DNA of 64,000 bases, taken from positions 1 to 64,000 of the forward strand of contig CAWKDB010000004.1 of NCBI GenBank assembly GCA_963848295.1, in the 5' to 3' direction. This DNA is from an uncultured delta proteobacterium. GTDB lineage: Bacteria > Myxococcota_A > Polyangia > Haliangiales > Haliangiaceae. The notes beneath the pieces were generated by a model. That model worked only from the letters and a program-made list of their open reading frames with translations. It ran no database searches and had not been told where the DNA came from. Made by a program: the position numbers and the translations under genes. This document shows positions 5,450 through 62,701 of this stretch, in pieces (positions within the stretch are counted from its first letter, which is position 1; the number at the start of each line of letters is the position of its first letter).

Positions 5450-5465
5450 TGGCACACGACGTGCT
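5450..5465 (+). promoter_or_regulatory. Sigma-54 promoter
   Basis: TGGCACACGACGTGCT; ATG 14 nt after the -12 C. Confidence 0.75.
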
Positions 5466-5477
5466 GTTCAGATCGCG

Positions 5478-6056
5478 ATGAGCACGCAAGACGTCGCGCA
5501 TGAGGAATCCCCCATTTCTGTCGATCCATTTGGCGGCGACGTCGAGCGCCGCACCTCGATCGAGCTGACCACGCTCGCGATCTCGCCGCCGACCGTGTCG
5601 ATCGCGACGCCGATGACGTTTGCGGCCACCGCGGATCAGGTCTGGGACCGACTGATGTTCTACGAGCAGCTGGACGGTCGGCCGCCGTTCCATCTGCGCT
5701 TGCTGTTGCCGGTTCCGATCCGCACGATCGGTGACAAGTCCCACGTCGGTGACGAAGCGCGCTGCGTCTATGAAGGGGGCCACCTGATCAAGCGCATCAC
5801 GCAGATCGATCGCGGACGGATCTATGCGTTCGAAGTCGTCGAGCAAGCGCTCGAGGTCGGCGGTGGCATGAAGCTCCTGGGCGGCGAATACAGGCTCGAC
5901 GAGATCACACCGGGCACGACGGAGGTGACGCTCTCGACCCGTTACACGAGCACGAAGCGGCCGCGTTGGCTGTGGCGACCGATCGAGGCCGCGGTCTGTC
6001 ACTCGTTCCATCGCCACATCCTGCGCACGATGCGCCGCGACGTGGAGTCGCGCTGA
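5478..6056 (+). CDS. SRPBCC/START-like domain protein
   Basis: ATADQVWDRL...YAFEV...TEVTLSTRY...FHRHILRTMR pattern. Confidence 0.7.
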   Translation: MSTQDVAHEESPISVDPFGGDVERRTSIELTTLAISPPTVSIATPMTFAATADQVWDRLMFYEQLDGRPPFHLRLLLPVPIRTIGDKSHVGDEARCVYEGGHLIKRITQIDRGRIYAFEVVEQALEVGGGMKLLGGEYRLDEITPGTTEVTLSTRYTSTKRPRWLWRPIEAAVCHSFHRHILRTMRRDVESR

Positions 6057-6057
6057 C

Positions 6058-6417
6058 ATGGTGCCGCGACTCCTCATGCGCAGCGCCGTCGCCGGCGTGT
6101 GGATCTACGAAGGCCTGTGGTGCAAGCTGCTCGGTCACGAGCCTCGCCAGGTCCAGGTCGTCGAGGCGGTGCCGGTGTTCGGTCCGCGCTTCGGTCCCAT
6201 GTTCTTGAAGGCGCTCGGCGTCGTCGAGGTCGGGATCGGCGTGTGGACGCTCAGTGGCGTCGCACCGGTGCTGTGCGCGCTCGTGCAGACACTGCTGTTG
6301 GTCACGCTCAACGCGAACGGCCTGTTGTGGGCACGGCACATCATCCACGACCCCGGCGGGATGGTGGTCAAGAACTTCGCGCTGCTGGTGCTCGCATGGG
6401 TCGCGGCGTTGCGATGA
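6058..6417 (+). CDS. DoxX-like membrane protein
   Basis: AGVWIYEGLWCKL...DPGGMVVKNF with 3-4 hydrophobic helices. Confidence 0.75.
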   Translation: MVPRLLMRSAVAGVWIYEGLWCKLLGHEPRQVQVVEAVPVFGPRFGPMFLKALGVVEVGIGVWTLSGVAPVLCALVQTLLLVTLNANGLLWARHIIHDPGGMVVKNFALLVLAWVAALR

Positions 6418-7313
6418 TGGCGAGCTCCGACACGCCGTGGGAGCGCGGCCGGTTCGACACGCGTGGTGGCCCGAGCAAGGTGTTGTTCGGGCGCATGTAC
6501 GAAGACACGGCGATCGAGCTGAATGCGTTCGCGCAGCGCGGCCGCGTGTTCTGCATTGCCTCTGCCGGTTGTACTGCCTTGAAACTCGCGTCTCGCCACG
6601 ACGTCGTCGCCGTCGACATCAACGCGATCCAGCTCGAATATGCTCGGCAGCGGATCGCGGGCGCTCCGGCGATCCGAGGTACCGCGGAGCGGATCATGGG
6701 CCTCGGTCGCGCACTCGCGCCGTTGGTCGGCTGGTCGCGGTCGCTCGTGCACGCATTCCTCGATCTCGACGCGCCGGCGGAACAGATGGCGTTCTGGCGC
6801 CGGCATCTCGACACCCGGCGGTTCCGCACGACGGTCGACGGTCTGCTGTCGCTCACGGCCCTACGCCGGATCTATGCGGCCCCGTTGCTGGCGTTCCTGC
6901 CACCGCATCTGGGCGGCGTGATGCGCGGACGGATGGAGCGGTGCTTCGCGCACCATTCCAATCGCGATAACCCGTATGCGCGGGCGTTGCTGCTGGGCGA
7001 GCTCGATGAGCTGGCGACGCAGGCGGCGTCGCATGCGATCCAGCTCGCCCATGCCGATGCGGCCGAGTTTCTCGAGCACGAGCCGGCGGGGACGTTCGCG
7101 GGCTTCACGCTCTCCAACATTCTCGACGGTGCGGACGACGGCTATCGTCGGCGTCTGTGCGCCGCGGTGAAGCGTGCGGCTACGCCCGATGCCATCGTCG
7201 TGATGCGTAGCTTTCGCGAGCCCGCGGTTGCGTTCGCGGACAATCGCGCGGCGGCGGATCGCTCGATGATCTGGGGCATCGTCGACGTGCGACCGGCGGC
7301 GACGCTGATCTGA
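6414..7313 (+). CDS. DUF3419/BtaA-like SAM-dependent transferase
   Basis: LFGRMYED, CIASAGC, VAVDIN and LSNILD motifs; ATGA overlap with the upstream gene. Confidence 0.75.
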   Translation: MMASSDTPWERGRFDTRGGPSKVLFGRMYEDTAIELNAFAQRGRVFCIASAGCTALKLASRHDVVAVDINAIQLEYARQRIAGAPAIRGTAERIMGLGRALAPLVGWSRSLVHAFLDLDAPAEQMAFWRRHLDTRRFRTTVDGLLSLTALRRIYAAPLLAFLPPHLGGVMRGRMERCFAHHSNRDNPYARALLLGELDELATQAASHAIQLAHADAAEFLEHEPAGTFAGFTLSNILDGADDGYRRRLCAAVKRAATPDAIVVMRSFREPAVAFADNRAAADRSMIWGIVDVRPAATLI

Positions 7314-7348
7314 CCTCGGACAAGTGCACGTTTCGTCCGCCTTCCGAC

Positions 7349-10300: not shown

Positions 10301-10444
10301 CGGGTGGCCAGATAACGGCCGGATCCGTCGCGGCAGCACGCCGACATCGTGCCCGTATAGCCGACGCTCCGTCGGATCAAACGAGACGCGGTCGGCGAAC
10401 ATCGTCTCGAGCTCTATGCGGCGCGCAGACGACAGTTCGTGCAT
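7349..10444 (-). CDS. FAD-binding plus 4Fe-4S plus CCG-domain oxidoreductase (GlcD/GlcF-type fusion)
   Basis: FAD-binding N-terminus, CSQCGYC and CTTCELC ferredoxin motifs, and cysteine-rich ENCC, HDSC, CCG and CPCC motifs. Confidence 0.9.
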   Translation of the reverse strand: MHELSSARRIELETMFADRVSFDPTERRLYGHDVGVLPRRIRPLSGHPVPDAVVQPQTEAELIELVRWAAEHGVPLTPRAKATSGYGGVVPVNRGLVVDLRRMTRVVRVDPAARTVTVEPSIVWERLDRELGTHGLTLRLYPSSYPSATVGGWLAQGGAGYGSYEFGWFRDNVISARLVLPSGEVRVLEGAELDVVSGAEGITGFISEVTLRVMAQEPLAIVGVRCPDPVSLAALLDGVVAAKLPIWSLGFVDPAMIELTNRCPPRAHPREDNVEMPVCYLVMLAMRAADAETTASRLDELIRTAHAERLADELARHEWDDRFRIMRVKRLGPSLVPAEVVVPLETLRETLEDLRSKIDQPLVLDGIAVARGANGEPEIVLLGFIPQDERTLGYDLAFGLALSVIKIAEHHGGRAYSTGLYFRHKARDVLGAEALDRLERFKHDVDPEGVMNPGKVIGAGVLSTAVRAAEAFEPVVRFVANRVKSEPGERRHGDKRGIPADVVEYAYACSQCGYCVDECDQFYGRGWESQSPRGKWFFLREYIEHKEEMSQKMVDSFLACTTCELCNVRCPEALPVEPSWMKLRGRLIQDEGRMTFPPFEIMKAATRAEGDIWAGYRKDRAAWFPEDLKATHGPSHKSKNVYFAGCTASYVEQDIGIGSVRLLDAAGVDFTYLAEQENCCATPMLAAGKWDVFAETMKKNVAAVKEAGADTVITSCPACDMMWRKVYPEWAEKLGIDYAITTKHYSELVSEKLEAGTFQFPKPVGDGKRHLDVVTWHDSCHIGRASGVYEPPRELLAALPDVELREMEHNREHAHCCGSVLTLLKDPAVAADVGKTRLDEAIAVGAEKVVALCPCCEFQLRVSADARKVDVEVVDLAHFAAERLGYKLPDPHPEVRAQWAVFEKMIALLTPEGFAGLLATMWPELIAAMPWGLGRVMRLFGKVPGVLRAMKPMFGVLFAFLLPKMMPELLPVMLDRITASVPMPEYMAAQMPQMIPGVMDALLPHMLPDVVKLVKDPLIAYLRGNPAPATA

Positions 10445-10456
10445 GACCCATACACA

Positions 10457-10472
10457 AGCATCGAGCGTGCCA
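10457..10472 (-). promoter_or_regulatory. Sigma-54 promoter
   Basis: TGGCACGCTCGATGCT; ATG 10444 is 14 nt after the -12 C. Confidence 0.75.
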
Positions 10473-10504
10473 CCGCCCCCTTGTTTCGCTGCTGTAGACG
10501 GTCG

Positions 10505-10547
10505 CGCAGCCCGTGCGGTGTTACGCCCCCCGAACGCAGGATTTGCG
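10505..10547. promoter_or_regulatory. Paired CGCA-N5-TGCG sites
   Basis: CGCAGCCCGTGCG (10505) and CGCAGGATTTGCG (10535), 30 bp apart, between divergent genes. Confidence 0.75.
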
Positions 10548-10568
10548 GAATCGTCGTTATGGTCGGCC

Positions 10569-18402: not shown

Positions 18403-18682
18403 GGTGGGATCCCGTCGCGTCGAGCTCGCCACGAACGTCGGCAGCCATGAGGTCATCGGCGTCGGCCCGCCGCAGCAGCTCGTCGTACATCGCGAGGGTC
18501 TCGCCGATCTCCGAGGCCGGGATCCGCCGGATCGCGAAGCCGACGTGGTTGAGCACGTAGTCTCCAGGCGCGACGGGCGCATCCACGACATCCAGGCGCA
18601 CCGGCTTGGTGACGCCCCAGAAATCGACGAGCGCGATGTCGCCTTCGATCGAGATCACGCGGCCGGGAACGCCGAGGCACAT
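18395..18682 (-). CDS. hypC: Hydrogenase chaperone HypC
   Basis: MCLGVPG start and GDYVLNHVGFAI. Confidence 0.95.
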   Translation of the reverse strand: MCLGVPGRVISIEGDIALVDFWGVTKPVRLDVVDAPVAPGDYVLNHVGFAIRRIPASEIGETLAMYDELLRRADADDLMAADVRGELDATGSHRE

Positions 18683-18695
18683 GTCGGTGTGCGGT

Positions 18696-18711
18696 TGCAT
18701 CGCGCATGCCC
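18696..18711 (-). promoter_or_regulatory. Sigma-54 promoter (internal, before hypC)
   Basis: GGGCATGCGCGATGCA; ATG 15 nt after the -12 C. Confidence 0.7.
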
Positions 18712-18740
18712 GCAGAAAACGTCGTCAGGTGGCGATTTCA

Positions 18741-18783
18741 CGCACCGATTGCGCGGTGCGCGGGCGATCGCGAAGATCATGCG
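18741..18783. promoter_or_regulatory. Paired CGCA-N5-TGCG sites
   Basis: CGCACCGATTGCG (18741) and CGAAGATCATGCG (18771), 30 bp apart. Confidence 0.6.
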
Positions 18784-21032
18784 CGGGCGATCGCGTCTGC
18801 GACGAGTGCCTGACCGAGTGCGATACCGCCGTCACCCGGCGGGACCTCGCGGTGGACATAGACCTCGAGATCGCGCAGGGCTCGTCCAATGCCCTCGGCG
18901 AGCCGGGGATTCTGGAATGCTCCGCCGGTGAGCACGATCGGCAACCGTCCGCGGGCTTCGACCGCGGCGCGCACGCGCTCGACGGTCGCGACGATCAGCG
19001 TGTCGTGGAACCGCGCCGACACGACCGACGGCGGAACTCCGGATTGCAGCTCGCCGGCAACCGCACGGACGAGCGGGCGCAGATCGACGGCTGGCAACTC
19101 CCCGGCGACCGCGAACGGGTAGACACCGTGTGCGCCGTCGGCCGCGACGTTCCATGCGACCGCGAGCTGCCCCTCGTAGCTCGAGGCTCCGCGGCCCAGC
19201 CCGAGTGCGCCGATGCCGTCGAAGAACCGCCCGATGCCGCGCGCGTACGACGTGTTGACCTCCGCGCGGATCATGCCCCGAACGACCGCGATCGAGCGCG
19301 CGGGCACGGCGTCGAACAGCGGCAGGTTTGCGAGCGGCGCCTCGCCGCCGAACGCATCGTCGAGTAGCGCCAGCGCGATTCGCCACGGCTCGCGGATCGC
19401 GAGATCGCCGCCGGCGAGGGCGACCGGCCGGAACGTCGCGAGCCGCTCGAACCCGGCGTAACGTGCGAGCAGGATCTCGCCGCCCCACGCGGTGCCGTCG
19501 GTGCCCCAGCCGGTGCCGTCGTAGGCGACGCCGATGACCGGACCGTCGAGCCCGTGCTCGGCCATCGCGCTCGCGACGTGCGCGTGGTGATGCTGCACGC
19601 CGATCCGACGCTCCGGGCGATCGTGCGCGTATCGCGTCGACAGGTACCCGGGATGCAGATCGTAGGCGATGACCTCCGGCCGAACTTCCAGGATCTGTTC
19701 CATCCGAGCGATCGCACCCTCGAAGAACCCGAGCGCGGGGACGGTCTCGAGATCCCCGATGTGGGGCCCGAGGTACGCGCTATCGCCGGCGGCGACGCAG
19801 AACGTGTTCTTGAGCTGCGCACCGACGGCGAGCACCGGCCGCGCGACCGCACGCGCCAGCGGGATCGGGCGCGGCGCATAGCCGCGCGATCGGCGGAGCA
19901 GCGTCGGCCGCCCCGCGATCACGCGTGCGACCGAGTCATCGCAGCGCGTCGCGATCGCACGGTCGTGGACGAGCAATGCGTCGGCGATCGCGCCGAGCCG
20001 GTGCACGGCCTCGGCGTTGTCGGCGCAGATCGGCTCTTCGGACGGATTGGCCGAGGTCATCACCAGCGGTCGGCCAACCGCGGCGAGCAGCAGGTGATGG
20101 AGCGGGGTGTACGGCAGCATCAGCCCGACGAGCTCGGTCTCGGGCGCGACCGCGCGGGCGAGCGCGGCGTCCGTGCGACGACGAACGAGCACGATCGGCC
20201 GCTCCGGTGCCACGAGCAACGCGATCTCGGCGGCGTCGAGCTCGGCGAGCGCGTGCGCGGCGACGAGATCGGCCACCATCACGGCGAACGGCTTTTCGTC
20301 GCGGCGCTTGCGCCGGCGCAGCGTCGCGATCGCCGGCGCGCAGGTCGCGTCGCACGCGAGATGGAACCCGCCGAGGCCCTTGATCGCGACGACCTCGCCC
20401 CGCTCGAGCCGCGCGGCGGCGTCGCCAAGCGGATCGGCGGTCGCGATCGGCGCTCCGTCGGGGGACCACAGCGCAAGTCGGGGGCCGCACATCGGGCACG
20501 CGTTGGGTTGCGCATGAAATCTGCGATCGCGCGGATCGTCGTACTCCCGCTGGCAAGCCGGGCACATCGCGAACGGCGCCATCGTCGTCGCCGGCCGGTC
20601 GTAGGGCACCCCCGTCGCGATCGTGAAGCGAGGACCGCATGCCGTGCAGTTCGTGAAGGCGTAGCCGTGCCGGCGATCGTGCGGGTCGGCGATTTCGCGC
20701 GCGCAGTCGGGGCACGTCGCGAGGTCGGGTGGGATCGACAGCGCGCGCGGACCGCCCTCGACGCTGTGCACGATCACGAAGTCGTTCGCCGACTCGTGCG
20801 GAATCGCTTCGGCGACCAGCTCGCGGACGCGCGCCGGCGAGGGTGGCTCGCGTAGTCGAGCGACCAAGCGATCGAGCGCGTGCTCGCCGCCGAACGCTTC
20901 GATCGTCACGCCGCGGGCATGGTTGTGCACTCGCCCGGCGACGCCGATCTCGTGCGCGATGCGGTAGACCCACGGCCGGAATCCGACTCCCTGCACGGTC
21001 CCGCGGATCTCGATGCGCAGGCCTCCATTCAT
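18777..21032 (-). CDS. hypF: Carbamoyltransferase HypF
   Basis: GTVQGVGFRP, zinc fingers CPDC..CTACGPRF and CPAC..CPMCGP, KGLGGFHL, QHHHAH and PGDGGIALGQ motifs. Confidence 0.95.
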   Translation of the reverse strand: MNGGLRIEIRGTVQGVGFRPWVYRIAHEIGVAGRVHNHARGVTIEAFGGEHALDRLVARLREPPSPARVRELVAEAIPHESANDFVIVHSVEGGPRALSIPPDLATCPDCAREIADPHDRRHGYAFTNCTACGPRFTIATGVPYDRPATTMAPFAMCPACQREYDDPRDRRFHAQPNACPMCGPRLALWSPDGAPIATADPLGDAAARLERGEVVAIKGLGGFHLACDATCAPAIATLRRRKRRDEKPFAVMVADLVAAHALAELDAAEIALLVAPERPIVLVRRRTDAALARAVAPETELVGLMLPYTPLHHLLLAAVGRPLVMTSANPSEEPICADNAEAVHRLGAIADALLVHDRAIATRCDDSVARVIAGRPTLLRRSRGYAPRPIPLARAVARPVLAVGAQLKNTFCVAAGDSAYLGPHIGDLETVPALGFFEGAIARMEQILEVRPEVIAYDLHPGYLSTRYAHDRPERRIGVQHHHAHVASAMAEHGLDGPVIGVAYDGTGWGTDGTAWGGEILLARYAGFERLATFRPVALAGGDLAIREPWRIALALLDDAFGGEAPLANLPLFDAVPARSIAVVRGMIRAEVNTSYARGIGRFFDGIGALGLGRGASSYEGQLAVAWNVAADGAHGVYPFAVAGELPAVDLRPLVRAVAGELQSGVPPSVVSARFHDTLIVATVERVRAAVEARGRLPIVLTGGAFQNPRLAEGIGRALRDLEVYVHREVPPGDGGIALGQALVADAIARA

Positions 21033-24017: not shown

Positions 24018-25187
24018 GAGTCACCTGTCTTGTCGGAGGCGGATTCGGTCGGCGTCGCCGCGGATTCGGCGGGCGGAGGAGGCGCCGTTGGCGCGTGCGC
24101 GTCACGTCGTTTGTCGAGCTTGCTCTTGCCGATCTGGACCAGCGCCGTGGCCGGCGAACGCGACGCCGACCGCGGCGGCCGCGAGGGCGCCGACCTTGTC
24201 GATCGCCGGTCGCGTCGCCGAAACCGGGGATCGCCCGACAGGTGACTGTAGAACGGCGTCATTCGGTCCCAGAACTCTGGCTCTGCGCAGCCGATGCACG
24301 GGTGACCGCACCCGATCGGCCAGTTGGTGTCGTCGTTCCAGCGGATGTTCGGGCAGTTCTGGAACGTCGACCGGACCCTTGCAGCCCATCTTGTAGAGGC
24401 AATGGCCGTCGCGATGGCCCTCGTCGCCCCACATCTCGACGTACTGCCCGGCATCGAAGTGCGCGCGTCGCTCGCAGTCGTCGTGGATCGACTTGCCGTA
24501 GGCGAACATCGGTCGATTGAGGTGATCGAGTGGCGGCCAGCGGTCGAACGTGAGGAAGTACGTGATGAGCGGCGACCAGGTTCTCGCCGTTGACCGGACA
24601 TGCCGGCATGTTGATCAGCGTTCTTGATCCCGGGCACGGCGTCGGCCACGCTGAGCGCGCCCGTCGGGTTCGGCGCCGCGGCCGGCAGCCCGCCGAACGC
24701 GGCGCACGTGCCGACCGCGATCACCGCGAGCGCATCCTTGCAGGCCTCCTCGCGCGATCTGCAGCGCCGAGCGGCCGCCGATCGTGCAGTACGCGCCGTC
24801 GGCGCCGATCGGGATCGACCCTTCGATCACGACGATGTACTGACCCTTCTTCGTCGAGAGCGTCGTCGCGAGGGCCTCCTCGGCGCGCTTGCCGGCCGCC
24901 GCCATGATCGTCTCGTGGTAGTCGAGGGAGAGGAGATCGAGGATGACATCGGCAGCGGTCGGCTTGGACGCGCGCAGGAACGATTCGGTGTTGCCGGCGC
25001 AGTCCTGAAACTCGAGCCAGACGACCGAAGGCTTCTGCTTGGTCTCGAGCGCGGTGAGGATCTTCGCGGCCGCCGATCGCTGCAGTCCGAGCATCGCGGC
25101 GATCCCTGCACAGAACCCCACGAAGTCGCGGCGAGTGATGCCACGGGCTTCGAGCTCGCGCTCCAAGGAGCTGATGTCACGCGCCAT
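24014..25187 (-). pseudogene. hyaA: [NiFe]-hydrogenase small subunit with Tat signal and C-terminal anchor, frameshifted as given
   Basis: TRRDF Tat motif, [37 protein letters not shown] and GHPCIGC across frames. Confidence 0.9.
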
Positions 25188-25199
25188 GTGATCGTTCCC

Positions 25200-25215
25200 A
25201 GCAAGTCATGTGCCT
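25200..25215 (-). promoter_or_regulatory. Sigma-54 promoter of hydrogenase operon
   Basis: AGGCACATGACTTGCT, near-consensus; ATG 14 nt after the -12 C. Confidence 0.85.
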
Positions 25216-25244
25216 GCAAACGGAGGCTCCATGCAGGACAATGG

Positions 25245-25287
25245 CGCTACCATTGCGACCTTCGGCGGCTCCCGCGCAGGTCTTGCG
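25245..25287. promoter_or_regulatory. Paired CGCA-N5-TGCG sites
   Basis: CGCTACCATTGCG (25245) and CGCAGGTCTTGCG (25275), 30 bp apart. Confidence 0.7.
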
Positions 25288-25364
25288 CGAAATTTGACCG
25301 CCGCACCTCGATGCCGCGGTGGCGACGTCGCGCAAGCGAGCGATCGGCTCGACCGAGCCCCCTC

Positions 25365-25380
25365 TGGCTCGCGCGCTGCA
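25365..25380 (+). promoter_or_regulatory. Sigma-54 promoter
   Basis: TGGCTCGCGCGCTGCA; ATG 14 nt after the -12 C. Confidence 0.7.
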
Positions 25381-25392
25381 GGGATGGCGGTG

Positions 25393-25740
25393 ATGCAGTC
25401 TCCTGTCGAGATCACGTTTCGCGGAATGTCCCCAAGCCCTTCAGTCGAGGAGGCTATTCAGCGCTCGGTCAGTCGCCTCGAGCAAAGCTTCGACCGCGCT
25501 CTGAGCTGCTCGGTAGTCATCGAAGTACCGCATCATCACCGTCAGCGCGGCAACCTGTTTCACGTCCGCGTCGAGTTGAGAGTGCCTGGGCTGGAGATCG
25601 AAGTATCGCGGGACCCCGCGCGCGACCAGAGGCACGAAGACGTGTATGTCGCTCTGTCGGATGCGTTCCGCGCGGCTCAGCGCCAGCTGCAAGAACATCT
25701 ACAGATCCGCCGTGGGGATATCAAAAGTCACAGCCTGTGA
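25393..25740 (+). CDS. HPF/RaiA-family ribosome-associated protein
   Basis: MQSPVEITFRGMSPS...CSVVIEVPH...HEDVYVALSDAF. Confidence 0.85.
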   Translation: MQSPVEITFRGMSPSPSVEEAIQRSVSRLEQSFDRALSCSVVIEVPHHHRQRGNLFHVRVELRVPGLEIEVSRDPARDQRHEDVYVALSDAFRAAQRQLQEHLQIRRGDIKSHSL

Positions 25741-41167: not shown

Positions 41168-41197
41168 CGTATCGCTGTGTGGGAACCGGCCGACGCG

Positions 41198-41213
41198 AGG
41201 CACGTGCGATGCA
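41198..41213 (+). promoter_or_regulatory. Sigma-54 promoter
   Basis: AGGCACGTGCGATGCA; ATG 16 nt after the -12 C. Confidence 0.75.
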
Positions 41214-41227
41214 GCTCTAGTGTGGTC

Positions 41228-42472
41228 ATGAGTCAGGACGCTGCTAGCTCGGCAACCGCCGCCCCGTCGCCCCATGGCGTGAAGACACGGACGAGTCATC
41301 GCGCTCGCAATGCGATCATCGCGAGCCTCGCCATCGCGCTCGCGCTCTTCGGCGCATATCTCTGGCGCTCGGCTTCGCGGGACAGCCGGCCGGTGTTCCA
41401 GTTCGAGCTCGCCAATGCGGGCCGAGGACCGATCCAGGCGAAGGTGACCGCGACCGGGACCGTCAATCCGATCGTCACGGTTCAAGTCGGCACCCAGGTG
41501 TCCGGGACGATCGAGAAGCTCGGCGCCGACTTCAACTCGACGGTCACGCCGGGCCAGATGATCGCGCAGATCGACCCGAGACTGTTTCGCGCCGCGGTCG
41601 AACAGGCGCAGGCGAATCTGCTCGCGGCGCGCGCGAGCACGCACAAGGCGCGGGCCCAGCTGATCCTCGACCAGCGAACAGCCGTGCGCAACCGCGGACT
41701 CGCGGCCCAGCAACTGATCGCGCAGGCGACGGTGGAAGCGAGTGACACCGCGGCCGTCGTCGATCAGGCCCAGCTCGAGCAGTCGATCGCCGCCGAAGCG
41801 CAAGCGCAGGCCGCGCTCGATACCGCAACGTTGAACCTTCACTACACGACGATCACCTCGCCGATCGCGGGCACCGTGATCACGCGCAACATCGACGTCG
41901 GCCAGACCGTCGCCGCGTCGTTCGCCGCTCCCACGTTGTTCCTCATCGGGCAGGACCTCACGAAGATGGAGGTCGATAGCAACATCGCCGAAGCGGATGT
42001 CGGAAGGCTCGCGCCGGGGATGACCGCCACGTTCTCGGTCGACGCCTACCCGACGCGGAGCTTTCACGGATCGATCCGTCAGGTTCGCAGCTCGCCGCAG
42101 ATCGTCCAGAACGTCGTGACCTACAACGCGGTCATCGACGTCGATAACACCGACCTCGCGCTCAAGCCTGGCATGACCGCGAATCTCGAGGTCATCTACG
42201 CGGATCGAAAGGACGTCAATCGCGTCGCGAACGCTGCCTTGCGGTTTCGGCCACCTCCGCAGCTCGCCGGAAAGACCGGGGTGGCAGTCCCGCCGGGCAA
42301 GAAGGTGGTCTGGGTGATGCGTGCCGGTGCGCCACGTCCGATCGAGATCACGACGGGCGTCAGCGACGGCACCGACACCGAGGTCGTCAACGGCGACCTC
42401 CAGCCCGGAGATCAGGTCGTCACCGAAGCGAATCCCACGCATCGCGCATCCGGTGCCGGGAGGATCCTGTGA
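41228..42472 (+). CDS. MacA-like periplasmic adaptor subunit
   Basis: N-terminal TM, VQVGTQVSG, TITSPIAG and GQTVAAS motifs. Confidence 0.9.
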   Translation: MSQDAASSATAAPSPHGVKTRTSHRARNAIIASLAIALALFGAYLWRSASRDSRPVFQFELANAGRGPIQAKVTATGTVNPIVTVQVGTQVSGTIEKLGADFNSTVTPGQMIAQIDPRLFRAAVEQAQANLLAARASTHKARAQLILDQRTAVRNRGLAAQQLIAQATVEASDTAAVVDQAQLEQSIAAEAQAQAALDTATLNLHYTTITSPIAGTVITRNIDVGQTVAASFAAPTLFLIGQDLTKMEVDSNIAEADVGRLAPGMTATFSVDAYPTRSFHGSIRQVRSSPQIVQNVVTYNAVIDVDNTDLALKPGMTANLEVIYADRKDVNRVANAALRFRPPPQLAGKTGVAVPPGKKVVWVMRAGAPRPIEITTGVSDGTDTEVVNGDLQPGDQVVTEANPTHRASGAGRIL

Positions 42473-44458: not shown

Positions 44459-44474
44459 TGGCACAGAGGCTGCA
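44459..44474 (+). promoter_or_regulatory. Sigma-54 promoter
   Basis: TGGCACAGAGGCTGCA; ATG 15 nt after the -12 C. Confidence 0.75.
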
Positions 44475-44487
44475 CTCGCTATCAGCC

Positions 44488-44892
44488 ATGCTGATGCCTC
44501 CCATCTCTCGGTACATGACTCGTCAACCGTGGACTATCCGAAAGGACGCGACGATGGCGGAGGCGCACCACATGATGCGCCTGCACCGGATTCGACACCT
44601 TCCTGTCCTCGAAGCAGGCAAGCTCGTAGGAATCGTCACGGAGCGTGATCTCCATTTGATCGAGACCCTACCTGGCGGAGACCCAGACGCCGTGACGGTC
44701 GAGGAAGCGATGACGGTGGACGTCTACGCGGTGCATCCCGACGGCGCCGTCGACTCGATTGTCGAGAAGATGGCAGACCACAAGTACGGTTCCGCCGTCG
44801 TGCTCGACCGACAAGGCGCGGTCGAGGGCATCTTTACGACAGTGGACGCGCTGCAGGTGCTCGCCGAGGTGCTGCGGCGCGCGACCGCCTAG
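44488..44892 (+). CDS. CBS-domain protein
   Basis: IRHLPVLEAGKLVGIVTERD and YGSAVV...GIFTTVD. Confidence 0.9.
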   Translation: MLMPPISRYMTRQPWTIRKDATMAEAHHMMRLHRIRHLPVLEAGKLVGIVTERDLHLIETLPGGDPDAVTVEEAMTVDVYAVHPDGAVDSIVEKMADHKYGSAVVLDRQGAVEGIFTTVDALQVLAEVLRRATA

Positions 44893-45049: not shown

Positions 45050-45265
45050 CTATGCGAGTCCGGCGTACCGAACCCACTGTCCCGAGCGGCGTTGCACGAA
45101 GCTTCGTTCGACCGCCGCCCACGCGATCCGGTGTGCCACGGCTTCGCGATTTCTCCCATATCTGCGAAGCGCGCCATTCAACGCGAGCCGGTACGTCTCC
45201 TGGGCGTCTTTCGGCAGCTGTGCGCACACGGCCTCCGGGAGCTTCGAGTCTGGCTCATCGTGCAT
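45050..45265 (-). CDS. ChaB-family protein
   Basis: LPEAV...LPKDAQETYR...AHRIAWAAVERSF. Confidence 0.8.
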   Translation of the reverse strand: MHDEPDSKLPEAVCAQLPKDAQETYRLALNGALRRYGRNREAVAHRIAWAAVERSFVQRRSGQWVRYAGLA

Positions 45266-45277
45266 GCCTCATCACCG

Positions 45278-45293
45278 AGCATGCCTTGTGCCA
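45278..45293 (-). promoter_or_regulatory. Sigma-54 promoter
   Basis: TGGCACAAGGCATGCT; ATG 14 nt after the -12 C. Confidence 0.75.
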
Positions 45294-51747: not shown

Positions 51748-51777
51748 ACTGCATGCGAGCCACCGACGGTCTTTGGA

Positions 51778-51819
51778 CGCAGGATCTGCGGCCTTCGCGC
51801 TGTGAGCGCACGAAGTGCG
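51778..51819. promoter_or_regulatory. Paired CGCA-N5-TGCG sites
   Basis: CGCAGGATCTGCG (51778) and CGCACGAAGTGCG (51807), both perfect, 29 bp apart. Confidence 0.75.
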
Positions 51820-51849
51820 CGAGTTCCGGCCTCGCGTGATGTAGGTGGC

Positions 51850-51865
51850 GGGCATGCCCGATGCA
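51850..51865 (+). promoter_or_regulatory. Sigma-54 promoter
   Basis: GGGCATGCCCGATGCA upstream of the SPFH gene. Confidence 0.7.
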
Positions 51866-51889
51866 GTCACCCGCAACGAGGTGAGTGTG

Positions 51890-52804
51890 ATGAAGAGAAC
51901 GAGCTCGTTTCCTGCGCTGTTATTGTTCGTGATCGTCGCAGCCGGCTGCGCGCTGGCGTACGCGCTCTACGGCGGCACCGTCGGGCTCGCGAGCACGATC
52001 ATCGTGACCGCTGCGGTGGTCGTAGGGGTGATCGTCGCGGCCGCACTCAAGGTCGCGGCACCGTGGGACCGAGCGGTCGTCCTGCGCTTGGGCCGGTTCC
52101 GCGCGCTACGCGGCCCCGGCTTGTTCGGGATCATCCCGATCATCGACACGATCCCCTACTGGATCGATACCCGCGTGCTCACCACGGGGTTCAAGGCGGA
52201 GAAGACGCTGACCAAGGACACCGTGCCCGTCGACGTCGACGCCGTGCTGTTCTGGAAGGTGCTCGATGCCGAGAAAGCGGCTCTCGCGGTGGCCGACTAC
52301 ACGACCGCGATCGGCTGGGCGGCCCAGACCGCGCTCCGCGATGTCATCGGCAAGACGGTGCTCGCCGACATGCTCGAAGGCCGCGAGAAGATCAGTGCCG
52401 AGCTGCAGCGGATCATCGATCTGCGCACCGAGCCGTGGGGCGTCAACGTGATCGCGGTGGAGGTCAGGGACGTCTTGATCCCGCCGGCTCTCGAGGATGC
52501 GATGTCGATGCAGGCACAAGCCGAGCGCGAGCGGCAGGCTCGCGTGATCCTCGGCGACTCCGAACGCCAGGTCGCCGAGAAGTTCGGCGAGGCGGCGAAG
52601 ACCTATGCCCACGATCCGGTCGCGCTGCACCTGCGTGCCATGAACATGCTGTACGAGGGTCTCAAGCAGAACTCGACGATCGTGGTGGTCCCGAGCTCCG
52701 CGCTCGAGTCGATGCAGCTCGGCGGACTCGCCGGGATCACGGCGCTCACCATGGGACTTGGTAAGGACGGAGCGGCCAAAGAGACCGCGGTCGCGAGCCA
52801 CTGA
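51890..52804 (+). CDS. SPFH/stomatin (slipin) protein
   Basis: AVVLRLGRF..GPGL, LTKDTVPVDVDAV, AQTALRDVIG and QAQAERERQAR motifs. Confidence 0.9.
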   Translation: MKRTSSFPALLLFVIVAAGCALAYALYGGTVGLASTIIVTAAVVVGVIVAAALKVAAPWDRAVVLRLGRFRALRGPGLFGIIPIIDTIPYWIDTRVLTTGFKAEKTLTKDTVPVDVDAVLFWKVLDAEKAALAVADYTTAIGWAAQTALRDVIGKTVLADMLEGREKISAELQRIIDLRTEPWGVNVIAVEVRDVLIPPALEDAMSMQAQAERERQARVILGDSERQVAEKFGEAAKTYAHDPVALHLRAMNMLYEGLKQNSTIVVVPSSALESMQLGGLAGITALTMGLGKDGAAKETAVASH

Positions 52805-55461: not shown

Positions 55462-56334
55462 TCATCGCGGGCCCTTCGAGACGGAGGATCCGAGATGGCG
55501 TCCGGGTTGTACATCGCTAGCTTGGTCCGCGAACGCGGGCTCGAAGCTCTCGGGCGCGGCGAGATAGGCACGGAACGCGCTCATCGCCCTGCTCACGTGC
55601 CAGCCATCCGCGTAGCGGTGATCGATCGTCGCGGTGATCGGGAGGATGTCGCGCACCTCGACACGGCGATCGACGACGACCCCGCGCGCGGTGATCTCGC
55701 CGACCAGGACCAGCAGCGGCACGTCGTACATCCACGCGAGCGGTGCGAACCCCTGCGGCAACCCGAACATCCCGACGTTGGTGACCATCGCGCTGCCGAA
55801 CGGGGAACGGTGCAGCGATAGCGCGGGTACGTCTAGCTCGAGCTCCTGGGTCAGGAACGCGGTGGCCTTCAAGACACCACGCAGGAGCCAGGAAGGCGTG
55901 AGATCGAGCAGGTGCTTGGTCTGCGCGAGGTCGCGGTCGTTGCCTTGCTTCATCGCGGTGCTGCGCTCGGTCAGCTCGCGGGCGATCGCGAATGCCGGTT
56001 TCACATCGGCGTTCGCGATCGCGACGCCGGAAAGATCGTGACCCTTGGCGACCGCGGTGATGAAGAAAATATCGACCGACCGGCGCGGGCGCACGCGGCC
56101 GCGCCGAATACGCACGTTGAGATCGGGAACCTCCCGCAAGACGTGGGCGAGTGCACGACCGACGACGTGCGTCGCGGTGACGTGATGACCCGCGGCGCGC
56201 GCACGCGCGATGAACGCCAGCGTTGGTCCCGCATCGACGTCGAGCTCACCGAAGATCTGCGGATCGTCTGGTGCGTGCCACATCGCACTCGCGACTCGTC
56301 GCCAGCCCGTGAGGCGCGTGCTCGGTCGCATCAC
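55462..56334 (-). CDS. Stand-alone 2-oxoacid dehydrogenase E2 acyltransferase catalytic domain
   Basis: GSAMVTNVG and TIDHRYADG; no lipoyl domain. Confidence 0.8.
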   Translation of the reverse strand: MMRPSTRLTGWRRVASAMWHAPDDPQIFGELDVDAGPTLAFIARARAAGHHVTATHVVGRALAHVLREVPDLNVRIRRGRVRPRRSVDIFFITAVAKGHDLSGVAIANADVKPAFAIARELTERSTAMKQGNDRDLAQTKHLLDLTPSWLLRGVLKATAFLTQELELDVPALSLHRSPFGSAMVTNVGMFGLPQGFAPLAWMYDVPLLVLVGEITARGVVVDRRVEVRDILPITATIDHRYADGWHVSRAMSAFRAYLAAPESFEPAFADQASDVQPGRHLGSSVSKGPR

Positions 56335-57510
56335 GAGGTCCGCTCCTTGCGCGGGATCGCGACGTCGAACGTCGTGCCGCTCGACGACGATGCGACCTCG
56401 ATCGTGCCGCGATGGAGTGCGACCAGGCTATGCACGATCGACATCCCCATCCCGGTCCCGCCCTCCTTCGTCGAGAAGAACGGCTCGTAGATCCGGGGCA
56501 ATACGTCGGCCGGGATCCCGGCACCGTCGTCGCTCACGCGGATGTGAACGTGGCCATCGACGGGAACGACAGCCACGATGACATGACCGCCGGCGGTCAC
56601 CGCTTCGATCGCGTTGTGGATCAAGCTATCGACGACCTGTCGGACCTTCGAGGCATCGATCTCGGCAACGACGGGCCCGGACGCGCCGCCGAGCGTGAGC
56701 GTCGCACCGCGCTGTATCGCCAGCGGCCGGTCGTGCTCGATCACATCGCGCACGAGGGCGACGAGGTCTTGAGACCGTAGCGCGAGTGCCTGCGGTCGCG
56801 CGAACGCAAGGAACTCGTCCAGCAAGGTCGTGAGCCGCTCGAGCTCGTGGTCCGCCAGCTCGATCGGCTCCACGAGCGTCGGATCATCACCGGCGCGACG
56901 CAGCCGGCGCTCCGCGAGCTTGAGCTGGAGCTTGGCGGAGTTGAGGGGGTTGCGCACTTCGTGTGCGAGCCCGGCGCACAGGGTCTGCATCGCCTCGACC
57001 TGCTCGATGCGGCGCTGCTGTTCGGCCGAGACCAGCCGCTCTTCCGAGTCGATCTGATATTGACGCAAGATCACGGCGAGCTCGAGGTCGAGGAGTTTGT
57101 CGACCGCGTTGCGGAAGGCATGCGCCTCCAGAGCAGCCGGACATGCGACGACGATCCGGTCGCCGTACGCGCGCCGGATGACGTTGAGCGCCGGCGACCA
57201 TGTAGTGCTGTGCGAGCCCGATCGCGACGTGGCGTCGACCGATTTGCGAGCGTTTCGCGATGAACACATCGTCGTAAGGCCCGAGCAATCCGGTCGACAT
57301 CCAATCGATCAGTGCGAGGCGCAGCCGCGCGACTTGTTCGGAGCTCGACAGGATCGCGGCCGTGCTCGCGTTCGCCAGTGCCACCGCGTAGAACGCATCG
57401 GCGATCGCCGGAAACGAAGGTGCGAGCACGGGGTGGAGCGCGACGAGCCGTTCGCGATCGTCTGCGCCGAGCGCGAGGTATGCGAGGATCTCGTCGAGGA
57501 GCTCGGTCAC
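56331..57510 (-). pseudogene. Globin-coupled (protoglobin) sensor histidine kinase, one +1 frameshift near 57192
   Basis: Globin part (IADAFY, IGRRHVAIGLAQHYM) in ORF 56887..57510; AVDKLLDLELAVIL, AHEVRNPLN, HNAIEA and GTGMG in ORF 56331..57269. Confidence 0.85.
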
Positions 57511-58925
57511 CTCTGACCATTTCGCTCGTTGCCGAGAGCGGCGTCCTTGGCCTGCACGACGTCGATTTCGGACCGCGGTGCGGCATGATACTCGTGCAGC
57601 CGATACTGGATCGTTCGCGCGCTGATGCCGAGCATCTCGGCAGCCTTCGAGGTGGAGCCTCCAGCGGCCTTCATGGTCTCGAGGATCGCGTAGCGCTCTA
57701 GCTCGGCCATCGTCGAGCCCGGAATCGGCGGGATACCCGAGGTGCCGACCGGCCGAACGTTGGGCGGGAGGTGACCGACTTCGATCTCGGGGCCGGTCGC
57801 GAGCACGATCGCGCGTTCGATCGCATTCTCGAGCTCTCGGACGTTCCCCGGCCAGTCGTACGCGACGAGCAGGTCGAGCGCCTGTGACGAGATCGCCTCG
57901 ACCGGCTTGCCGTTGTCCTTGGCATAGCGATCGACGAAGAACTTCGCGATCGCCGGAATGTCGGATCTGCGGTCGCGCAGCGGCGGCATCTCGATGTTGA
58001 CGACGTTGAGCCGGTAGAACAGATCCTCTCGGAACCGACCGCGCGCGACCTCCTCTTTGAGATCGCGATTGGTCGCCGCGATCACCCGGACGTCGACGCG
58101 GATCGTCTGCGTGCCGCCGACGCGCTCGAACTCGTGCTCCTGAAGGAAGCGGAGCAGCTTGACCTGCAGCGAGGTGGAGATCTCGCCGATCTCGTCGAGG
58201 AACAACGTGCCGCCATCGGAGAGCGAGAATCGGCCGTCCTTGCGCGCCGTCGCGCCGGTGAACGAGCCCTTCTCGTGGCCGAACAGCTCGCTCTCGAGCA
58301 AGCTTTCGGCGAGCGCGGCGCAGTGCAGCTTGATGAACGGGCCACTCGCGCGCGGCGACCGCTGATGGATCGCGTTCGCGACCAGCTCCTTGCCGGTCCC
58401 GCTCTCGCCCGTGATCAGGACGGTCGCCCGACTCGGGGCGACCTGGTCGACGATCTCGAACACGCGTTGCATCGGTGGGCTCGACCCGACCATGTTGCCG
58501 GGCGCAACACGATCGCGGACGCGCTTGCGCAGCTGTGCCGTCTCGCGGCGCATCGCCTGGTTCGCGAGCACCTTGTCGAGCACGACGAGGAGCTCGTCGA
58601 AGTTGAGCGGCTTGGTCAGATACTCCTCGGCGCCGGCGCGCATCGCCTCGAGCGCGGACTCGACCGCGCCGAAGGCGGTCATCACGACAACGGCTGGCGC
58701 GTCCTCCATCGCACGGAGCTTCTTGACCAGCTCGATGCCGTCCATGCCTGGCATCTTCAGATCGGTGATCACGACATGCGGCGCGAACCCCTCGAACTTG
58801 CCGAGCGCCTTGAACGCATCGGCCGAGGTCTCGACATCGAACCCCTCCTCGCGCAGCAGCTCGGCCAGCGCCGTACGGGCGTGAACTTCATCGTCGACGA
58901 CTAGGATGCGTCCGGTGCGGATCAT
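57507..58925 (-). CDS. Sigma-54-dependent response regulator (NtrC/AtoC family)
   Basis: Receiver domain (TDLKMP), [31 protein letters not shown] and Fis-type HTH. Confidence 0.95.
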
Positions 58926-58937
58926 GAGCCATCAGAT

Positions 58938-58953
58938 AGCGAGACGCGTGCCA
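58938..58953 (-). promoter_or_regulatory. Sigma-54 promoter of the regulator gene
   Basis: TGGCACGCGTCTCGCT; ATG 14 nt after the -12 C. Confidence 0.75.
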
Positions 58954-58983
58954 TGGAGATCCGCGGATTTGCGGGTATCAAAG

Positions 58984-59026
58984 CGCAAGACCTGCGACAC
59001 GAGCGACCTGTCGCGCAAGCCGTGCG
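58984..59026. promoter_or_regulatory. Paired CGCA-N5-TGCG sites (autoregulatory)
   Basis: CGCAAGACCTGCG (58984) and CGCAAGCCGTGCG (59014), both perfect, 30 bp apart. Confidence 0.8.
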
Positions 59027-59059
59027 GGATTCCCACAGCCCGGCGTCGGCGTTTCAATA

Positions 59060-60895: not shown

Positions 60896-60932
60896 AGCGG
60901 CATGGGACGGGGTGATGCATGCGACGCGCCGA

Positions 60933-61369: not shown

Positions 61370-62029
61370 CTACCCGATCCGCGTTTGATCGATCACCGTC
61401 TCGACACCGCGCGTGCCCCACACCGCGCCGACGATCGCCAAGCGCTCGGTCAGCGAGTCGATGTCGCCGGTCACCGTGACCTTGCCACCTTCGATATCGA
61501 GCTTCACCTTCTTGGCCTCGCGGGTTGCGTGGCGCTCGAGCGCGCCCTCGATCGCCGTGCGCAAGATCGCCGGCGAGATCGATGGCCCAGCAAGCTTGAT
61601 CTCGTTCTGGACCGCGCACACGCCAGCGAGCTGACCCACGGCGCGGGCGGCGTCTTCGCGTTGCGAAGCGACATCGACCGATCCCGACAACGTGACGACG
61701 CCATCGCTGACCGTCGTTTGAACCCGCTCCTCGGGGACCAGCACATGCCACTTCAACGAGGTGCGCGCCGCCTCGGCGATGTCGGCGTCGCTCGGCTTCG
61801 CCGCATAGAGTTTGACCTGAAGATCGTCGGCGACGTCTCGTACGCCGGCCACACGGTGTGCCGCATCGCGCGCGGCGACGCGCTTCGCCCAGCTCGCGAC
61901 GGTGCCGGTCAACGTCACGATCCCGCGATGGGCCTGGACGCCGACCTCCGTCTCGTCGACGCGCGTGTCCCACTTCAGCTCTTCGAGGACATCTTTCTTG
62001 ATCTGTGAATCGGACTTGATGGTTTGCAT
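61370..62029 (-). CDS. BON-domain protein (3 BON domains, OsmY-like)
   Basis: Three repeats GIVTLTGTV, GVVTLSGSV and GKVTVTGDI. Confidence 0.9.
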   Translation of the reverse strand: MQTIKSDSQIKKDVLEELKWDTRVDETEVGVQAHRGIVTLTGTVASWAKRVAARDAAHRVAGVRDVADDLQVKLYAAKPSDADIAEAARTSLKWHVLVPEERVQTTVSDGVVTLSGSVDVASQREDAARAVGQLAGVCAVQNEIKLAGPSISPAILRTAIEGALERHATREAKKVKLDIEGGKVTVTGDIDSLTERLAIVGAVWGTRGVETVIDQTRIG

Positions 62030-62041
62030 GAATTCTCGCCG

Positions 62042-62057
62042 AGCAAGTCGCGTTCCA
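62042..62057 (-). promoter_or_regulatory. Sigma-54 promoter
   Basis: TGGAACGCGACTTGCT; ATG 14 nt after the -12 C. Confidence 0.8.
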
Positions 62058-62089
62058 CTGGGTCGGCGAGCTCAGCTGCATGTGGCTCG

Positions 62090-62132
62090 CGCACTCTCGG
62101 CGTCGTGACGGCGCGATCGCGCAAACGATGCG
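62090..62132. promoter_or_regulatory. Paired CGCA-N5-TGCG sites
   Basis: CGCACTCTCGGCG (62090) and CGCAAACGATGCG (62120), 30 bp apart. Confidence 0.65.
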
Positions 62133-62428
62133 CGATTCTCGTAGCCCGCGCGCCAGCATTCGAGGTGGCGCCTCGCGCAAGCCCAAGATCTCGCCGTCCT
62201 GCCCGTTACCGGCACCGGTTGGAGTGACTGGGGTTCGCCCAAGCGCGTGTTCGCCAGCCCTGCCGGGACACCTAGCCACGATCGGCTCGTCGCACGCATA
62301 CGCGGCGACTTCGCACTCGCCGGCTGATCGAGGTTTCGAGCCTTCCGGAGCCGTCGTACACTTTTCCGCACGACTGGCGTTCATCGCTGAACGGCGCGAC
62401 GGAGCTGCGCCCTCTCGGGCGATCGCAC

Positions 62429-62644
62429 TCACGCGAGCCGCGATCGCGGGACCCAGATCCCGGCCGCGCGCTGAAAGTAGCGTCTCTTCACCGCCGCCCA
62501 GGCGATCCTGTGAGCGATGGCTTCGCGATCGGCGCCGTACCGTGCGAACGCGTCGTTGAACGCCGCGCGATAGATATCTTGGGCGTGTTGCGGCAGATGC
62601 TTGCGCACGCCCACCGGGAGATTGGAATTCTTGGTGTAGGGCAC
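62429..62644 (-). CDS. chaB: ChaB-family protein
   Basis: MPY..NSNLP..VRKHLPQHAQDIYRAAFN...AHRIAWAAVKRRY. Confidence 0.9.
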   Translation of the reverse strand: MPYTKNSNLPVGVRKHLPQHAQDIYRAAFNDAFARYGADREAIAHRIAWAAVKRRYFQRAAGIWVPRSRLA

Positions 62645-62656
62645 GTGGCCAGCAGC

Positions 62657-62672
62657 AGCACGAGTCGTGCCG
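62657..62672 (-). promoter_or_regulatory. Sigma-54 promoter
   Basis: CGGCACGACTCGTGCT; GTG 14 nt after the -12 C. Confidence 0.75.
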
Positions 62673-62685
62673 AGGTACGCGGCCC

Positions 62686-62701
62686 TGGAACGGTCCATGC
62701 A
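62686..62701 (+). promoter_or_regulatory. Sigma-54 promoter
   Basis: TGGAACGGTCCATGCA; ATG 15 nt after the -12 C. Confidence 0.7.

Follow-up and report, generated by a model that had tools for sequence, protein, structure and literature searches.

Sigma-54 promoters abutting start codons in a candidate low-oxygen stress island of an uncultured delta proteobacterium

Introduction

Can a bacterium express genes from sigma-54 promoters without any 5′ leader? The question is raised by the first 64 kb of contig CAWKDB010000004.1 (C4 in the coordinates below) of an uncultured delta proteobacterium of the Haliangiaceae (assembly GCA_963848295.1; 7.78 Mb, 68% GC, 85% complete). In this stretch, which will be referred to as the window, sigma-54 boxes lie so close to start codons that hardly any leader would be left. 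Both sigma-54 promoters and leaderless mRNAs are familiar when taken separately, and ribosomes load on the 5′ AUG of leaderless mRNAs without a Shine-Dalgarno (SD) sequence. An initial annotation had read the promoters of the window as one 58-kb regulon of leaderless sigma-54 genes. Here, we present evidence which makes it probable that the window contains a stress island whose protoglobin kinase and NtrC-type activator respond to low oxygen and act through enhancer-pair sigma-54 promoters to yield leaderless mRNAs.

Results

Sigma-54 boxes and start codons in the window

The spacing was expressed as d, the number of nucleotides from the C of the conserved GC (−12 element) to the first base of the start codon. 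All 19 GG-N10-GC motifs of the initial annotation were found at their positions, and its distances were reproduced: d is 14 at twelve sites (5450, 10457, 25200, 25365, 28961, 33174, 39200, 39307, 45278, 58938, 62042 and 62657), 15 at four (18696, 37436, 44459 and 62686), 16 at 41198 and 17 at 29079, so that 18 of the 19 fall at d = 14–17. A 20th sigma-54 site outside that list was detected at 60917 (−), again with an ATG at d = 14. Using a consensus score that was not fitted to these data, ATG was present at d = 14–15 for 13 of 23 window sites compared to 0.23 on average and never more than 2 in 100 second-order Markov resamplings, the peak above background that the reading of the initial annotation requires.

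The start codons are taken as real because Pfam matches begin near residue 1 and because orthologues keep the spacing (see below). Pfam domains start at residues 1–9 in HypC, the HPF-like protein, the Host_attach protein, the CBS protein, both ChaB proteins, the hemerythrin at 37465 and the activator. At six sites (5450, 10457, 25200, 28961, 58938 and 62042), no alternative in-frame ATG or GTG exists upstream or up to 14 codons downstream, the nearest among them being codon 14 at 10457.

Chance matches in DNA of 67% GC, or an artefact of start choice, might be put forward to explain the pattern, since GG-N10-GC alone is common in such DNA and the 23 consensus sites of the window represent only a twofold excess over the 11.4 found in resampled DNA. 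However, the distance peak exceeds the resampled window by far, appears in counts made without gene calls, is lost when the GG–GC spacing is altered by one base (9 or 11) and is kept in orthologues, and we rejected this explanation as having next to no likelihood.

The initial annotation had further stated that such a motif precedes nearly every transcription unit. The 19 sites are indeed present, but the statement went too far: by inspection, the first genes at 10596 (+), 33034 (−), 33709 (+), 45453 (+), 48254 (+) and 51719 (−) carry no site of at least 7 bits just upstream. With 16 sites, the window is nevertheless the densest of the 119 bins of 64 kb in the genome (next 15, median 1). At its distal end, two sigma-54 boxes (62672–62658 and 62686–62700) stand back to back only 13 nt apart in front of divergent small genes (62429–62843), without an NmpR-type enhancer.

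The layout is found genome-wide

The genome carries a single rpoN copy and 77 matches to the sigma-54 activator domain PF00158, about 60 of them near full length and one in the window. Ten MYXO-CTERM matches (0 of 14 control genomes) and an RpoN that is 58% identical to that of Nannocystaceae, 55% to Polyangiales and 53% to Myxococcales (three named myxobacterial genomes) were found; the source is likely a myxobacterium.

Untrained counts relied either on the consensus score above or on the pattern GGCAY-N6-TGCW without gene calls. Among 231 sites matching this pattern, ATG occurs at d = 14 in 68 and at d = 15 in 23, compared to 0–10 at every other d from 4 to 39. For the full TGGCAC-N5-TTGC motif, all eight sites of the genome have an ATG at 14 or 15. 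A weight matrix trained on 137 sites at d = 14–15 yielded 531 intergenic sites of at least 10 bits, 144 without a called gene within 200 nt and 387 with a gene. In the latter group, the start lies at d = 14 in 126 and at d = 15 in 57 cases (183 together), at d = 16–18 in 45 and at d = 10–13 in 12.

Sigma-A-type promoters show the same habit. A TANNNT box ends 7–8 nt before the candidate start in 999 of 6418 genes, compared to 106 at the control distance of 20–21 nt, and about 900 genes above background (approximately 14% of all genes) are thus predicted candidates for sigma-A leaderless transcription. The idea that the architecture is special to the island did not hold, as 202 of the 217 sites at d = 14–15 lack the enhancer pair described below and sigma-A promoters share the habit. 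The leaderless layout is best read as a default of the lineage that extends to sigma-54 rather than as something that this regulon invented.

A second stress island (C10:1860001–1920000) contains 15 sigma-54 sites abutting starts per 64 kb, three of them with the enhancer pair, and genes for USP, CBS, BON, M50 peptidase and PCMT-erythromycin esterase proteins; it is likely under another activator. Two near-identical strong sigma-54 boxes at C2:1408670 (−) and C4:305247 (−) have similar downstream sequence and no called gene, and are possibly a repeated element or a small RNA.

Signs of transcription starting on the start codon

SD 4-mers in the spacer were detected at 5 of 183 sites with d = 14–15 and at 0 of 45 with d = 16–18, compared to 49 of 132 with d = 22–150 and 6.7% of random intergenic 12-mers. 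The abutting starts also use ATG more often than the distant ones (154 of 183 versus 76 of 132, P = 2e-7; the tally took in ATG and GTG only). Directly in front of the ATG, 76% of the 154 sigma-54 starts have C and 1% have A, compared to 45% and 7%, respectively, of 1112 SD-led starts. Initiation favours a pyrimidine just before +1 and a purine at +1 itself, and the C bias is what would be expected with the A of ATG as +1. At 80 strong sites with distant starts, the purine content rises from 33% at d = 13 to 59% at d = 14, which represents a pyrimidine-to-purine step. Overlap with sigma-A −10 boxes was considered as a cause of the distance peak and rejected, a TANNNT box lying inside the spacer at only 5 of the 183 sites with d = 14–15.

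Mapped sigma-54 starts were available from Sinorhizobium meliloti. In the RpoN sheet (PMC3616915, Table S10), nine rows carry TGGCAC, four of which are 'virtual' without a mapped start; the five usable rows start at d = 14, 14, 11, 13 and 13, and two further near-consensus rows, taken from one of 141 table parts, both start at d = 13. One start in the RpoN table is leaderless, its prediction being weak and non-consensus. The value of about 12 nt from the C to the transcription start, on which the initial annotation had relied, proved slightly short compared to 11–14 and mostly 13–14 in S. meliloti, and this larger offset strengthens the leaderless reading. Judged from sequence, leaders of 0–1 nt at d = 14 are most likely and would reach up to 3 nt if +1 lay at d = 11. 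Overall, every sequence test applied identified the boxes as sigma-54 promoters, and the initial proposal of near-zero leaders without SD is supported by the geometry, the scarcity of SD, the ATG bias, the pyrimidine at −1 and the spacing in orthologues.

Conservation in relatives and activator orthologues

All 35 published genomes of the genus contain the strict pattern followed by an ATG at d = 14, with 17–85 occurrences per genome. As a control, the reversed pattern does not follow the abundance of sigma-54 sites; off-peak positions at d = 7–12 were therefore used instead. The per-position ratio obtained in this way was 7.6–82 (median 22) in 21 of the 35 genus genomes, 6–28 in seven of nine genomes from other families of the order (near 1 in the other two) and at least 7.8 in four of 15 genomes from other orders of the class; further genomes of the class gave at least 5 in nine of 25 (d = 14–15). 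Because kin genomes are not independent, these figures are ranges rather than tests. Among 50 named genomes, taken from the matches listed for the activator, the median ratio was 1.0, and the 47 remaining without three myxobacteria showed a pooled ratio of 1.1 and no peak, with Shigella, for example, yielding 8 counts at three positions versus 20 at six. Named-genome ratios were 4.1 for Polyangiales, 2.0 for Nannocystaceae, 1.1 for Myxococcales and 4.8 for one genome labelled Limnocylindrales. Ratios of 7–19 were obtained for some genomes in other classes of the phylum, the 19 genomes concerned having been picked for high counts and thus not being a fair sample. A few genomes outside the class also show an excess at d = 13–15 (approximately 5–19; three of four picked for high counts), and the leaderless spacing may have evolved or spread on more than one occasion.

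Of 39 published genus genomes, 31 contain a close match to the activator. Four of 29 loci were dropped (one unpublished, one cut by a contig end and two distant paralogues of 66–68% identity without a protoglobin neighbour or a box at the start), leaving 25. In all 25 orthologues, box and ATG are kept, with d = 14 in 15, 15 in five, 16 in three, 17 in one and 18 in one, and at least one enhancer with at most one mismatch is present, although the 13-nt spacers are on average only 35% identical. The spacing is thus kept in relatives, both in the orthologues and as a peak in the genus genomes.

In eight of the 25 orthologues, a TANNNT box in the sigma-54 spacer points at the same ATG, which suggests that sigma-A and sigma-54 promoters overlap there and serve basal and induced expression of the activator. 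An unbroken frame encodes the protoglobin kinase in 24 of 25 genus relatives, and likewise in a second copy within the genome, where an activator and protoglobin kinase pair of 78% identity is located at C10:4211012–4213569.

Enhancers and an NmpR-type activator

Paired GCGCA-N5-TGCGC enhancers centred at about −80 and −50, 29–31 nt apart, precede 11 of the 19 promoters. Four others have one good site or shared sites off position, and four (44459, 45278, 62657 and 62686) have none nearby. The pair was found at 0 of 20000 random positions and at 10 of 18 matrix-scored window sites compared to 8 of 513 elsewhere in the genome. An exact pattern combining enhancer, box and an ATG at d = 14 is present in 32 of 121 genomes of the class, a few of them plainly by chance.

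In Myxococcus xanthus, the NmpR site consists of a GCGCA-N5-TGCGC pair with a gap of 14–15 bp and works through sigma-54; NmpR is fed by a heme protoglobin kinase, and its target mxan_4236 is up 6.5-fold in hypoxia (PMC11841059, available text). The best named matches of the island's activator, among the matches listed, are myxobacterial proteins of 55–60% identity. By analogy, the protein encoded at 57507..58925 is likely an NmpR-type activator of the island and low oxygen is likely its signal. An NmpR-type regulon would also account for the window being the densest island of the genome.

The initial view of a single 58-kb regulon could not be maintained because such an enhancer is missing near four promoters; at a minimum, these four would depend on a different one among the roughly 60 activators of the genome.

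Gene content of the island

The features of the island are summarized in Table 1. Further gene types of the window identified by Pfam are Hyp genes, phosphoketolase, acetate kinase and exporters. The genes for the small and large hydrogenase subunits and cytochrome b (21570–25187, −) are spread over several frames, reflecting either assembly indels or decay. Divergent from the 10457 promoter, a squalene/phytoene synthase gene is followed by two genes for ArsA-type ATPases (10596–13618, +) without a sigma-54 box of their own. In front of the receiver-kinase gene (33034–33070, −), a TAGAGT box ends 10 nt before the ATG, beside a perfect enhancer; a sigma-A promoter of this kinase gene run by the activator of the island is possible.

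Table 1: Promoters and selected genes of the island. Enhancer centres are given relative to the C of the −12 element.
Feature	Coordinates	Strand	Enhancers	Box	Start codon	d	Gene product and remarks
Promoter	5375..5480	+	−82, −51	5450–5464	ATG 5478	14	
Unit behind 5450 promoter		+					3 genes: SRPBCC-like (below cut-off), DoxX-like, DUF3419
Promoter	10442..10548	−	−83, −53	10472–10458	ATG 10444	14	FAD/Fe-S oxidoreductase, 1031 aa
Promoter	18680..18784	−	−80, −50	18711–18697	ATG 18682	15	HypC, Pfam from residue 1; internal promoter (18696) for hypC-D-E and following genes
Promoter	25185..25288	−	−80, −50	25215–25201	ATG 25187	14	[NiFe] hydrogenase small subunit; gene heads the hydrogenase unit
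Promoter and gene	25365..25740	+	no pair at −80/−50; divergent pair at −98/−128 could serve	25365–25379 (weak)	ATG 25393	14	HPF/RaiA-like (PF02482), 115 aa
Promoter and gene	28457..29048	−	−79, −50, shared with divergent promoter	28976–28962	ATG 28948	14	Host_attach/baeRF12 protein (28948–28457); P-type ATPase next
Promoter and gene	29079..29292	+	−81, −52 (same pair as 28961)	29079–29093	ATG 29110	17	60 aa, no Pfam match
Kinases	30007..33034	−		no sigma-54 box at start			Receiver-HisKA-HATPase hybrid, 33034–31919 (NmpS domain order), and PAS-kinase-receiver
Promoter	33056..33204	+	−125 (perfect), −51 (2 mismatches)	33174–33188	ATG 33202	14	Hemerythrin
Promoter	37363..37467	+	−80 (1 mismatch); proximal site with 3 mismatches	37436–37450	ATG 37465	15	Hemerythrin; phosphoketolase upstream, same strand
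Promoter	39185..39215	−	shared, off position, −41/−70	39215–39201	ATG 39187	14	246 aa, no Pfam match
Promoter	39235..39337	+	−79, −50	39307–39321	ATG 39335	14	Apparent 29-aa ORF, in frame with 550-aa ABC protein (39431–41083) across one stop
Promoter	41125..41230	+	−80, −51	41198–41212	ATG 41228	16	MacA/MacB-type exporter unit
Promoter	44459..44490	+	no NmpR-type enhancer	44459–44473	ATG 44488	15	CBS-pair protein
Promoter	45263..45293	−	no NmpR-type enhancer	45293–45279	ATG 45265	14	ChaB
Promoter	51777..51892	+	−80, −51	51850–51864	GTG, GTG, ATG	17, 23, 26	Band 7 protein
Sensor kinase	56331..57510	−					Protoglobin-HisKA-HATPase, NmpU-like (PF11563); directly behind activator; frameshift-split
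Activator	57507..58925	−					NtrC-type sigma-54 activator; receiver, AAA+, HTH; 472 aa
Activator's own promoter	58923..59027	−	−81, −51	58953–58939	ATG 58925	14	ATG is the only in-frame start
Promoter	60901..60931	−	no NmpR-type enhancer	60931–60917	ATG 60903	14	Acyltransferase
Promoter	62027..62133	−	−83, −53	62057–62043	ATG 62029	14	Triple BON-domain protein, then OsmC-like
Promoter	62642..62672	−	no NmpR-type enhancer	62672–62658	GTG 62644	14	ChaB
Promoter	62686..62717	+	no NmpR-type enhancer	62686–62700	ATG 62715	15	42 aa, no Pfam match

Discussion

The arrangement of the island points to the following scheme. The protoglobin kinase relay would read low oxygen, by analogy, and the phosphorylated activator would bind the enhancer pair and open the sigma-54 promoter. 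Geometry and base bias suggest that transcription would begin on the A of the ATG or 1–2 bases from it, and ribosomes would load directly on the 5′ AUG of these transcripts, from which an SD sequence is absent. The enhancer pair at the activator's own promoter would add positive feedback.

Several points weigh against this scheme. At 51850, GAGG precedes both the GTG at d = 23 and the ATG at d = 26, and this promoter is probably leadered with its start at one of the two. One of the 20 window spacers contains an SD-like sequence (AGGAG at 37436). Of the 25 spacers of the activator orthologues, seven contain an SD-like 4-mer and eight a TANNNT box, so that longer transcripts or other promoters may also contribute to synthesis of the activator. 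The second activator copy of the genome has no ATG at d = 14, and its start would be a TTG at d = 24 behind GAGAGG. A transcription start at d = 11–12 would produce leaders of 2–3 nt rather than none. In view of the frameshifts in the sensor kinase and the hydrogenase genes, the island may be partly decayed or the assembly error-prone. Gene starts were derived from our own hexamer gene caller, and the training set of the weight matrix biases the matrix-based fractions to the peak, the untrained counts being unaffected. Finally, the designation NmpR-type refers to sites, domains and neighbours.

The SD-like and TANNNT elements just mentioned could be taken to mean that sigma-54 does bind the boxes while the proteins are mainly made from longer or sigma-A transcripts, the boxes representing secondary promoters or repressing sites. 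Dual sigma-A and sigma-54 promoters are known at ahpC of M. xanthus (PMC12754779, available text). Genome-wide, however, SD 4-mers and TANNNT boxes are each confined to 5 of 183 spacers, and a repressing site would need neither an ATG distance sharp to one base nor a C at −1 nor enhancers at activating positions, so that this explanation appears highly improbable. A further possibility is that the leaderless layout was selected within the regulon for translation by intact 70S ribosomes while the cell at low oxygen shuts down normal translation. Genes for an HPF/RaiA-like protein and an aeRF1-like Host_attach/baeRF12 protein, located 3 kb apart, are both under such promoters; Balon-type aeRF1 homologues are described as hypoxia-induced hibernation factors beside RaiA, OsmC and OsmY (PMC10901736, available text), and by analogy the protein encoded at 28457–28948 may be a Balon-like hibernation factor. 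Other dense islands also contain USP, CBS and BON genes. Furthermore, a start at d = 14–15 was observed for 15 of 18 enhancer-bearing sites compared to 202 of 513 others (P < 0.001). False sites, however, dilute the comparison set, and the difference narrows at higher scores: with increasing cut-offs, the contrast was 11 of 14 versus 162 of 331 (P = 0.052), 7 of 7 versus 121 of 205 (P = 0.044) and 5 of 5 versus 69 of 106 (P = 0.17), and by first in-frame start it was 11 of 17 versus 172 of 370 (P = 0.21).

The nature of the other leaderless genes likewise argues against selection for hibernation. The sites at d = 14–15 without an enhancer pair include kinases, a helicase, a glycosidase and transporters. 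In eight chosen 20-kb regions, 31 leaderless-site genes include seven that encode USP, CBS-only or BON proteins, 11 whose products lack a Pfam match, and genes for kinases, a helicase and a glycosidase. A lipobox-like signal was present in 66 of the 183 genes at d = 14–15 compared to 833 of all 6418 genes. The roughly 900 sigma-A genes have the same layout, and in M. xanthus the hypoxia response of the NmpR target mxan_4236 relies on an apparently leadered, SD-led mRNA (PMC11841059). The lineage-wide habit accounts for the data and makes selection for hibernation unnecessary; we regard such selection as unlikely. The wider proposal, in which the lineage runs about 200 enhancer-activated, leaderless sigma-54 genes per genome and its low-oxygen regulon, being almost wholly leaderless and supplying HPF-like and aeRF1-like factors of its own, could be translated by 70S ribosomes while it silences ordinary translation, is doubtful as well. 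We thus retain the stress island with enhancer-controlled leaderless promoters as the preferred explanation.

If this is true, approximately 180–230 sigma-54 genes and some 900 sigma-A genes of a Gram-negative lineage are expressed from leaderless mRNAs. Their expression would be set almost entirely by promoter opening under activator control, leaving no 5′ untranslated region for riboswitches, small RNAs or tuning of the SD sequence. The fixed spacing would also provide a practical marker by which start codons and sigma-54 regulons of uncultured genomes could be located to the base; in the window it exposes a likely NmpR-type hypoxia regulon linking hydrogen uptake with hemerythrins and candidate hibernation factors.

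Comparison with known systems

Regarding the promoter itself, the closest counterparts are the dctA, glnB and glnK promoters of S. meliloti (PMC3616915, Table S10), which share the TGGCAC-N5-NTGCW motif, the strict GG-N10-GC spacing and upstream activator sites. The mapped sigma-54 examples available there have leaders of approximately 50–160 nt, whereas in the present genome the start codon coincides with the expected +1 at roughly half of those intergenic sites that have a called gene. Sigma-70-type leaderless mRNAs, as described in the available parts of studies on Deinococcus-Thermus (PMC12340547), Bradyrhizobium japonicum (PMC4842269) and Leptospira (PMC5243855), resemble the island in the AUG-biased start at the +1 distance and the lack of SD, but the promoters of the island are of the activator-dependent sigma-54 type. 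In B. japonicum, an extended −10 motif is located upstream of leaderless starts and RpoN motifs are reported separately (PMC4842269), and for the myxobacterial pexR a sigma-A leaderless mRNA has been predicted (PMC12754779). No description of a leaderless sigma-54 regulon was found in the titles and abstract openings searched, a search that left most subscription journals outside. Within this scope the parts are known, the combination was not found in print, and sigma-54 as a main source of leaderless transcripts was not found described. The present analysis contributes the layout of the NmpR-type enhancers, the series of activator orthologues, the comparison to sigma-A promoters and the contrast to M. 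xanthus.

Concerning gene content, the hypoxia islands of the DosR type (Balon/Rv2629, RaiA; PMC10901736, available text) likewise combine HPF/RaiA-like, aeRF1-like, OsmC-like and BON proteins. The island described here differs in its control by a sigma-54 activator, and the likeness of its aeRF1-like protein is at the level of the baeRF12 family.

The most extensive likeness is to NmpRSTU of M. xanthus, as far as the available text of PMC11841059 describes it. Both systems have an enhancer pair with the same consensus and gap upstream of a sigma-54 box, an NtrC-type activator whose own unit carries such sites and a protoglobin histidine kinase (NmpU). The protein encoded at 33034–31919 in the island is a candidate counterpart of the receiver-HisKA-CA hybrid kinase NmpS, whose domain order is common. 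Hemerythrin and P-type ATPase genes are targets in both, and CBS proteins are encoded within the island. A cbb3 oxidase and hemN, in which NmpRSTU differs, were not found among the window proteins scanned. The island further deviates in that its targets are packed together and include [NiFe] hydrogenase and maturation genes as well as HPF-like, baeRF12, BON and MacAB genes, that activator and protoglobin kinase are adjacent, and that the promoters abut the start codon. At mxan_4236, in contrast, the primers given in PMC11841059 would place the −12 box no fewer than 38 nt away from the ATG, which is itself preceded by AGGAG, and the known NmpR regulon of M. xanthus thus appears leadered at this target. 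The contrast between this apparently leadered version and the island offers a direct test of a leaderless advantage under hypoxia.

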